From the sequence record NC_016158.1: 49,576 nt of DNA; one strand, given 5' to 3'. The DNA is from Escherichia phage HK639. This document shows positions 44,363 to 44,517 of the stretch, one piece after another. The stretch's first letter is position 1, and the number at the start of each line of letters is the position of its first letter. The notes beneath the pieces are model-generated. The model saw only the letters and a list, made by a program, of their open reading frames with translations. It had not been told where the DNA came from and searched no databases. The translations under genes were made by a program, and so were the position numbers.

Positions 44363-44437
44363 GGGTCAGAAGCACAGCGGTTGTGCGTTCGGCTGTTAAC
44401 CGAATGGTCGAAGGTTCGAATCCTTCCTGTCCCGCCA
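44363..44437 (+). tRNA. tRNA-Asn (anticodon GUU), phage-encoded, one U-U mismatch in acceptor stem
   Basis: Manual fold: acceptor GGGTCAG/CTGTCCC, D-stem GCAC/GTGC, anticodon stem TTCGG/CCGAA with loop CTGTTAA, T-arm GAAGG-TTCGAAT-CCTTC, discriminator G, CCA. Confidence 0.6.
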
Positions 44438-44442
44438 ATTCT

Positions 44443-44517
44443 GCATCTGTCGTAGTTTGGGAATTACGTCTGGCTTCCAAGCTGATGATGCGGGTTCGAT
44501 TCCCGCTGCCCGCTCCA
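44443..44517 (+). pseudogene. tRNA-Gly(UCC)-like partial/pseudo tRNA (intact 3' half, non-pairing 5' half)
   Basis: 3' part CTTCCAAGCTGATGATGCGGGTTCGATTCCCGCTGCCCGCTCCA matches recalled enterobacterial glyT from anticodon loop to CCA; upstream acceptor and anticodon 5' strands do not pair. Confidence 0.5.

Follow-up and report, generated by a model that had tools for sequence, protein, structure and literature searches.

A functional-looking tRNA-Asn gene and a hybrid tRNA-Gly pseudogene between Q and the lysis genes of Escherichia phage HK639, very probably the scar of a module exchange

Two tRNA-like units lie next to each other between the antiterminator gene Q and the lysis genes of Escherichia phage HK639. 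The first looks like a tRNA-Asn, and the second ends like the host tRNA-Gly gene glyT but does not begin like it. What are these two units, and how did the second come to consist of halves that do not fit each other? The window, by which we mean the whole stretch of DNA analysed (49,576 nucleotides; sequence record NC_016158.1), is from position 1 to 49576 the entire IMG/VR record IMGVR_UViG_2597490004_000001, and is given in virion order: the terminase at the left end, then the integrase, and the lysis genes together with a Rha-family gene near the right end. It resembles Enterobacter phage ENT1, a Klebsiella oxytoca phage, and phi80 in patches only, with respective coverages of 24%, 19%, and 13% as computed on the searched half of the window (25001-49576). 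The features on which the argument turns are collected in Table 1.

Table 1. Positions in the window of the features between Q and the lysis genes, and of two distant recombination genes.
Feature	Position	Strand	Evidence or remark
RecT-family single-strand annealing recombinase	30888..31808	-	Pfam RecT 1.5e-29
Integrase	26022-27185		18 kb from the hybrid tRNA-Gly
Antiterminator Q gene, 165 aa	43768..44265	+	Pfam Phage_antitermQ 1.4e-21; left-hand parental module
Short leader RNA	44281..44353	+	Terminator scan; terminator hairpin 44329-44352 and T run at its end
tRNA-Asn, anticodon GUU, 75 nt, G73 discriminator, encoded CCA	44363..44437	+	ARAGORN, Rfam
Unit 2, hybrid tRNA-Gly pseudogene, 75 nt	44443-44517	+	glyT-identical 3' part, broken stems
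Hybrid 5' part: acceptor 5' strand, D arm, anticodon-stem 5' strand	44443..44473	+	Enterobacter-phage-type tRNA-Gly(UCC)
Putative crossover interval, anticodon loop CTTCCAA	44474..44480	+	Common to both parental tRNA-Gly genes
Hybrid 3' part: anticodon-stem 3' strand, variable loop, T arm, acceptor 3' strand, U73, CCA	44481..44517	+	glyT-type tRNA-Gly(UCC)
Conserved non-coding leader after the glyT-type tRNA-Gly of lambdoid phages	44518..44740	+	100% identical to L005; right-hand module
STnc100-like sRNA element, own terminator 44954-44973	44780..44985	+	Rfam RF02076 52.6 bits against a gathering score of 47
Lysis cassette: two holins, GH19 endolysin, spanin-like ORFs	45217..46928	+	Pfam searches

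To judge from its sequence, the first unit is a genuine tRNA-Asn gene. The earlier note had folded it by hand into a 75-nt tRNA with anticodon GUU, one U-U mismatch in the acceptor stem, and a sequence unlike that of the host tRNA-Asn, and all of this is borne out. ARAGORN calls the gene, and Rfam family RF00005 matches it over 44363-44434 with the full length of the model (1-71) at 63.9 bits (gathering score 29; E = 1.2e-11); the single non-canonical acceptor pair in the Rfam alignment, U4·U69, is a mismatch that is tolerated. The cloverleaf is the minimum-energy fold. About 57% of the positions are shared with asnT of E. coli K-12 (43 of 76 alignment columns are invariant), and the gene is not a copy of the host gene. 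AsnRS recognizes the anticodon GUU and the discriminator G73, and both identity elements are present (GTT in the loop CTGTTAA, and G before the CCA). The same tRNA-Asn occurs without any change in 22 other loci of Klebsiella, Enterobacter, and E. coli phages and prophages, and with 1-3 substitutions in 8 more; in L018 the anticodon stem shows a compensatory change from U-A to C-G, the variation among relatives being too low for a real covariation test. The gene looks functional, and we predict that it is the working part of the interval.

A tRNA-Asn is an already known type of phage cargo. Genes for tRNA-Asn(GUU) and tRNA-Thr(UGU) were reported downstream of Q in phages SfI, Sf6, ST64T, PS3, and 21, and for SfI, which shows no Asn codon bias, the role of tRNA-Asn was called unclear (PMC3636060). 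The tRNA genes behind Q in lambdoid phages and those of the window share their position between Q and the lysis or late genes, their arrangement as a short tandem array, and the recurrent tRNA-Asn(GUU); the tRNA-Asn is essentially alike, but the second gene of the array is destroyed in the window. The arrays that we found at related loci are of the kinds Asn-Gly-Thr(-Arg), Asn-Arg, and Met-x-Thr-Gly. At the same place after Q, the Stx phage 933W carries ileZ-argN-argO.

The earlier note had placed both units close to Q and ahead of the lysis genes, and rightly so, with Q ending at 44265 and the lysis ORFs starting at 45217. By exact-protein look-up, many assemblies of Enterobacteriaceae encode a Q protein identical to that of the window, and the names attached to it are Enterobacter hormaechei and Enterobacteriaceae. 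The Pfam matches of the lysis cassette are Phage_holin_8 (1e-34), Phage_holin_3_7 (1.1e-18), and Glyco_hydro_19 (3.9e-07). The short leader RNA downstream of Q resembles isrJ at a sub-threshold 34.6 bits (Rfam gathering score 37), and is unchanged in L165-L174, loci that share Q with the window. This leader probably comprises the pR' leader and tR', and hence the site where Q acts; pR' is placed there from its position and from the leader terminator, because a sigma-70 consensus scan of 44100-45300, which includes the stretch from Q to the tRNAs, gave no promoter. The tRNA-Asn starts 10 nt past the strong terminator hairpin of the leader, and would probably be co-expressed with the late genes once Q permits read-through; we infer this dependence on Q from the succession of Q, leader terminator, and tRNA, which fits that of other lambdoid phages. 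The isrJ consensus is closer to the copies of this leader in ENT1 and L006 than to the copy in the window, which suggests that the Salmonella isrJ is itself the late-leader transcript of a prophage.

The second unit is not recognized as a tRNA by any of the tools used. ARAGORN made no call, and the Rfam tRNA model gave no match even at E <= 10 in a search of 511 nt, in which a 17-nt match of the T arm to tmRNA was the sole Rfam signal for this unit. Alignment with K-12 glyT confirms the 3' half that the earlier note had recognized: positions 32-75 of the unit (44474-44517, 44 nt) are 100% identical to the host gene. Equally correct was its description of a pseudo-tRNA with unpaired 5' acceptor and anticodon strands, as a cloverleaf forced on the unit has non-pairs at 5 of the 12 positions of the acceptor and anticodon stems. 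The non-pairs of the acceptor stem are 3-69, 4-68, and 5-67 (A·C, U·C, and C·C) when counted from the first of the 75 nt, or 3:70, 4:69, and 5:68 in standard tRNA numbering; those of the anticodon stem are 29-41 and 31-39 (U·U and G·G). The cloverleaf is not the minimum-energy fold of the unit, and its energy amounts to -6.7 kcal/mol against -23.4 and -27.7 kcal/mol for two intact relatives.

What the earlier note had overlooked is the origin of the 5' half: it comes from a second, different phage tRNA-Gly(UCC), and this is the reason for the mismatched stems. Related phages do possess an intact tRNA-Gly at the corresponding place, in two different types. In ENT1 and many prophages, an intact tRNA-Gly(UCC) stands right after the same tRNA-Asn, with the same 5-nt spacer, and its first 38 nt are those of unit 2. 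In E. coli phages and prophages, a tRNA-Gly(UCC) identical to glyT closes an array of the form Met/Ile-x-Thr-Gly, and its last 44 nt are those of unit 2. Each type is well populated: the ENT1 type is intact in 31 of 32 matching viral contigs (the remaining one has a 1-nt deletion) as well as in L165, L169, and L174, and of 120 contigs, about 109 have an intact glyT type before the same leader. The 5' part of the hybrid is identical to the tRNA-Gly of phage ENT1, of L165, and of 27 viral contigs, and its 3' part to K-12 glyT and to the tRNA-Gly of the E. coli prophages and phages L005, L001, and L002. Both parental genes are readily detected with the Rfam tRNA model (58.6 and 64.9 bits), whereas the hybrid is not; their stem sequences differ, so that pairing in the stems of the hybrid is impossible, which should keep it from maturing and from being charged. 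Probably it is still transcribed with the late leader. We regard it as a passenger scar that should be non-functional as a tRNA-Gly, a judgement that follows from the broken stems.

The three-way alignment leaves little room for gradual decay. The two intact parental genes are 71% identical overall and differ at 22 positions; unit 2 agrees with the ENT1 type at all 13 diagnostic sites to the left of the anticodon loop, and with the glyT type at all nine to the right, with one switch between the parents and no private substitution. Unit 2 is thus a hybrid of two phage tRNA-Gly halves with its breakpoint in the anticodon loop. A tRNA-Gly that lost its function and then decayed in place through point mutations would also leave a tRNA-like sequence inside a tRNA array that tRNA finders pass over, as is the case here. 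Yet the other relative accounts for every one of the 22 differences, which form two unbroken blocks, and random mutation would not recreate the exact 5' half of another gene; the flanks, moreover, match the parents without a single difference over 686 and 297 bp. Neither did we see intermediate alleles with scattered diagnostic sites among the 32 and 120 loci of the two types, but only variants of the pure types that differ by 1-3 nt. Decay in place is accordingly a reading to which we give hardly any credence. Of the three origins that the earlier note had entertained for this unit, it is the recombination scar that stands; the decayed tRNA falls for want of any private substitution, and the remnant of an att site fails on the tRNA-Gly half at its 5' side.

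The two blocks extend well beyond the tRNA. Window positions 43795-44480 (686 bp) are 100% identical to L165 (GCA_030185955.2), in which the Q gene of the window, the leader with its terminator, and the tRNA-Asn are followed by an intact ENT1-type tRNA-Gly and a tRNA-Thr. Positions 44474-44770 (297 bp) are 100% identical to L005, a prophage of E. coli MB06232 in which the pair Thr-Gly is intact. The only overlap of these perfect tracts is the 7-nt CTTCCAA. In L176 and L180, which have an intact Thr-Gly upstream, the match with window 44450-46908 is continuous at 94%, and it follows that the right arm is a single module made up of tRNA-Gly, structured leader, STnc100-like RNA, and lysis cassette.

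These flanks also bear on the att remnant, according to which a relative had integrated into the host glyT and the tRNA 3' part carried by its attP was later trapped at the present place. The attP of phages often holds the 3' 40-50 nt of a tRNA gene (P4- and P22-like integrases), and the glyT-identical tract, with its 44 nt from the anticodon loop to the CCA, has about the typical length. In this respect it is like the tRNA fragments at attP sites and island boundaries, whose 3' portion from anticodon loop to CCA is identical to the host tRNA. It is unlike them in its surroundings: it lies neither at a prophage end nor by the integrase, and what precedes it on the 5' side is no phage or host flank but precisely the 5' half of another tRNA-Gly. 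Its 3' flank is a late leader that is found after an intact phage tRNA-Gly in at least 109 contigs. The integrase gene is far away and has no tRNA beside it; the region on its side (25200-26100) contains no tRNA-like core, and in E. coli genomes it matches an S24 peptidase/HumD (UmuD-like) gene only. Among 5,426 E. coli genomes, no glyT-bounded prophage was found with an attL or attR site reproducing 44474-44517 and the flanks of the window. On all these counts we reject the att remnant, which we hold to be extremely improbable. Gene conversion by the host glyT was rejected as well, because the downstream flank is the phage leader and not the spacer between glyT and thrT of the host.

The hybrid joint is known from one assembly. 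A 24-mer across the junction retrieved only the window's own record from IMG/VR and nothing from the species-representative genomes; GenBank phages and E. coli complete genomes gave no further match, and the reciprocal junction is absent from IMG/VR. A junction 20-mer occurred in three metagenomic contigs, in unrelated GC-rich coding sequence, which we regard as chance matches, and the exact-protein look-up of the ORF spanning the junction, which returned no match, is uninformative. A joint in a single record calls to mind an artefact, in which two prophages with one tRNA-Gly type each were mis-joined inside the tRNA by the assembler or by a chimeric read; modules of both parental types are widespread in Enterobacteriaceae, and one genome could contain the two. 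Against this, the switch falls within the 7-nt identity, directly flanked on each side by sites of the opposite parents, which is far below the k-mer or overlap length of assemblers. A longer shared 14-mer (GATGCGGGTTCGAT) lies 7 nt further downstream and would be the likelier place for a mis-join, but the sites between the loop and this 14-mer are already of the right-parent type. The contig, besides, is a complete and colinear 49.6-kb phage genome from the terminase to the lysis genes. An assembly or sequencing chimera is for these reasons unlikely, though it deserves mention.

The reading that we favour, and consider very probable, is that the interval consists of a functional-looking tRNA-Asn and a dead hybrid tRNA-Gly, the scar of one recent crossover between a Q/tRNA module and a module with tRNA-Gly, leader, and lysis genes. 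The left parent would have been a lambdoid prophage of the Enterobacter/Klebsiella type with the array Asn-Gly-Thr, donating the first 31 nt of the hybrid; the right parent would have been a lambdoid phage with a Met/Ile-x-Thr-Gly array, as seen in E. coli prophages, donating the last 37 nt. A single crossover inside the paralogous tRNA-Gly genes, with the 7-nt anticodon loop as exchange point, would have fused Q, leader, tRNA-Asn, and the 5' half of tRNA-Gly to the 3' half of tRNA-Gly, the structured leader, the STnc100-like RNA, and the lysis cassette. The partners may have been two lambdoid phages co-infecting one cell, or one such phage that superinfected a lysogen and the prophage resident there. 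The event appears recent, since both parental tracts are 100% identical and carry no later mutation. Independent tRNA-borne joints ahead of the same leader in relatives, described below, also count in favour of a crossover.

As to the enzyme, the phage RecT or the host RecA may have acted on a 32-nt stretch around the loop that is 84% identical between the parents (27/32), and microhomology-mediated joining is an alternative; the enzymology is uncertain because 7 nt is little for an exchange by classical homologous recombination. Recombination between short, diverged sequences is documented for phage RecT and Red-beta, which create lambdoid mosaics (PMC3945230), and the RecT encoded in the window is a candidate for the enzyme that catalysed the exchange. 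In lambdoid phages, mosaic joints have been located at residual patches of homology and ascribed to relaxed recombination by Rad52-like proteins such as RecT and Red-beta (PMC3945230). The joint in the window is like them in that modules with separate ancestries meet at a short stretch of pre-existing similarity, that the flanks are nearly or fully identical to sequences elsewhere, and that RecT is encoded. It is unlike the usual ones in that the homology is provided by paralogous tRNA genes, the interval is 7 nt, and the joint falls within a gene, killing it, instead of at a gene boundary. The hybrid is therefore a very clean instance of a known process, and the event is of an ordinary kind. 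Less familiar is that the patch of homology consists of a pair of tRNA genes, one of which was killed by the joint; we found no description of hybrid tRNA genes at lambdoid mosaic joints in an incomplete search of the literature, which is not proof of absence.

The locus accordingly offers an example, resolved to the base pair and with known substrate, of the swapping of regulatory (Q) and lysis modules among lambdoid phages, and it indicates that phage tRNA genes can be lost as a by-product of modular exchange. It also calls for caution in annotation: the 3' half of a tRNA that is identical to the host gene is not necessarily an att site.

The window is not alone in having a disturbed tRNA-Gly ahead of this leader. 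Among the 120 contigs that share the leader, the tRNA-Gly is exactly glyT-like in 85 and deviates by 1-3 nt in about 24; it is rearranged in nine, in seven distinct ways that include the hybrid of the window. In three contigs and in E. coli L6-21 (L006), the 3' end of tRNA-Thr is fused out of register to the 3' end of tRNA-Gly (CCTTTGCCCG joined to CTCCA). The other rearrangements are a 7-nt deletion in the T arm, 3' remnants of 8 nt and of 17 nt, a tRNA-like gene of another kind directly before the leader, and the lack of any tRNA.

This variety is also what speaks against retention of the hybrid for some RNA role, be it as a signal for processing of the leader, a decoy for a tRNA-targeting nuclease, or a mini-substrate made of T arm and CCA. 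The T arm, U73, and CCA of the hybrid are intact, and the conserved structured RNA at its 3' flank always follows directly on the 3' end of a tRNA or on a fragment of it. But what relatives keep before this same leader ranges from a full tRNA down to 8 nt, and can be nothing at all, so that no particular hybrid structure is required, and the hybrid itself occurs once and bears no sign of selection. Such a role is in our opinion very unlikely, and we keep to the passenger scar.

In seven relatives (L006, L017, L033, L034, L119, L140, and L145), a 426-bp ORF for an HNH endonuclease is inserted into the tRNA-Thr(UGU), where it takes the place of 15 nt (ACGGCAGCCTTGTAA) from the D stem and anticodon arm; in L006 the locus is 3110-3620. 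The ORF is accompanied by the Thr-Gly 3' fusion in L006, L119, L140, and L145, and occurs without it in L017, L033, and L034. It is likely a homing endonuclease that targets the tRNA array. In phage T4, exchange in the tRNA region is associated with the homing endonuclease SegB (PMC2330249), and nuclease genes have been found at the boundaries of exchange (PMC10448857). The likeness to SegB lies in the HNH ORF within the tRNA-Thr of the relatives, which in L006, L119, L140, and L145 stands beside a second hybrid joint. The differences are that the window has no endonuclease gene in the region, its stretch from Q to the holin being free of any HNH ORF, and that the enzyme of the relatives is of the HNH family, whereas SegB is of the GIY-YIG family. 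A nuclease could conceivably have initiated the joint in the window too. The several independent tRNA-borne joints, together with the HNH insertions, suggest, short of proof, that tRNA arrays are preferred points of exchange. We would advance only tentatively, as an idea with rather less than even chances, that the arrays between Q and the lysis genes act as recurrent 'adaptors' for module exchange among the lambdoid phages of different enterobacterial genera, through micro-homologies in conserved loops and T arms and with breaks that the HNH enzyme in tRNA-Thr may supply. If true, the arrays would provide a concrete class of sequence for the long-debated 'linker' model of phage mosaicism.

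The E. coli-type arrays harbour a further peculiar member. Their second gene (L001 2323-2399, L005 about 2825-2900, and 16 other variants) has conserved acceptor, D, and T arms and a highly variable anticodon arm, for which ARAGORN proposes Lys-UUU, Phe-AAA, Leu-UAA, 'Stop'-UUA, or Arg-UCU, or finds 6-nt loops; the copy in L005 is called by neither RefSeq nor Rfam. It is either a decaying argN-like tRNA or a tRNA with a diversifying anticodon loop. Elsewhere in the window, ARAGORN reported a 70-nt 'tRNA-Ile(GAT)' at 33694-33763 on the minus strand, with a good T arm and CCA. It lies antisense within the ORF 33591-34109, folds no better than shuffled sequences (z = -0.71), and has no match in an Rfam tRNA search at E <= 1; we take it for a probable false positive, or for what is left of a heavily degraded tRNA-like sequence.

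Downstream of the hybrid, the right-hand module continues with two non-coding RNAs. The conserved leader, which was found in at least 120 viral contigs of IMG/VR and matches no Rfam family, contains hairpins at about 44524-44568 and 44576-44649 and, according to the terminator scan, a terminator at 44713-44732 with a T run. Its RNAalifold consensus has compensatory pairs in two hairpins, namely 4-47 and 5-46 (UA/CG), 58-132 (AU/UA), and 66-124 and 72-119 (UA/GC); this covariation mostly separates just two clades and thus reflects few independent events. The apical loop varies; the internal loop (UGCGAUGAU / GGAGUGA) does not. The STnc100-like element, whose counterpart in L005 scores 53.1 bits, is situated between the tRNAs and the holin gene and overlaps a 52-aa ORF (44764-44922). 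In the relatives L175-L184, a further mosaic boundary is frequently found at the 5' edge of this element (about 44775-44798).
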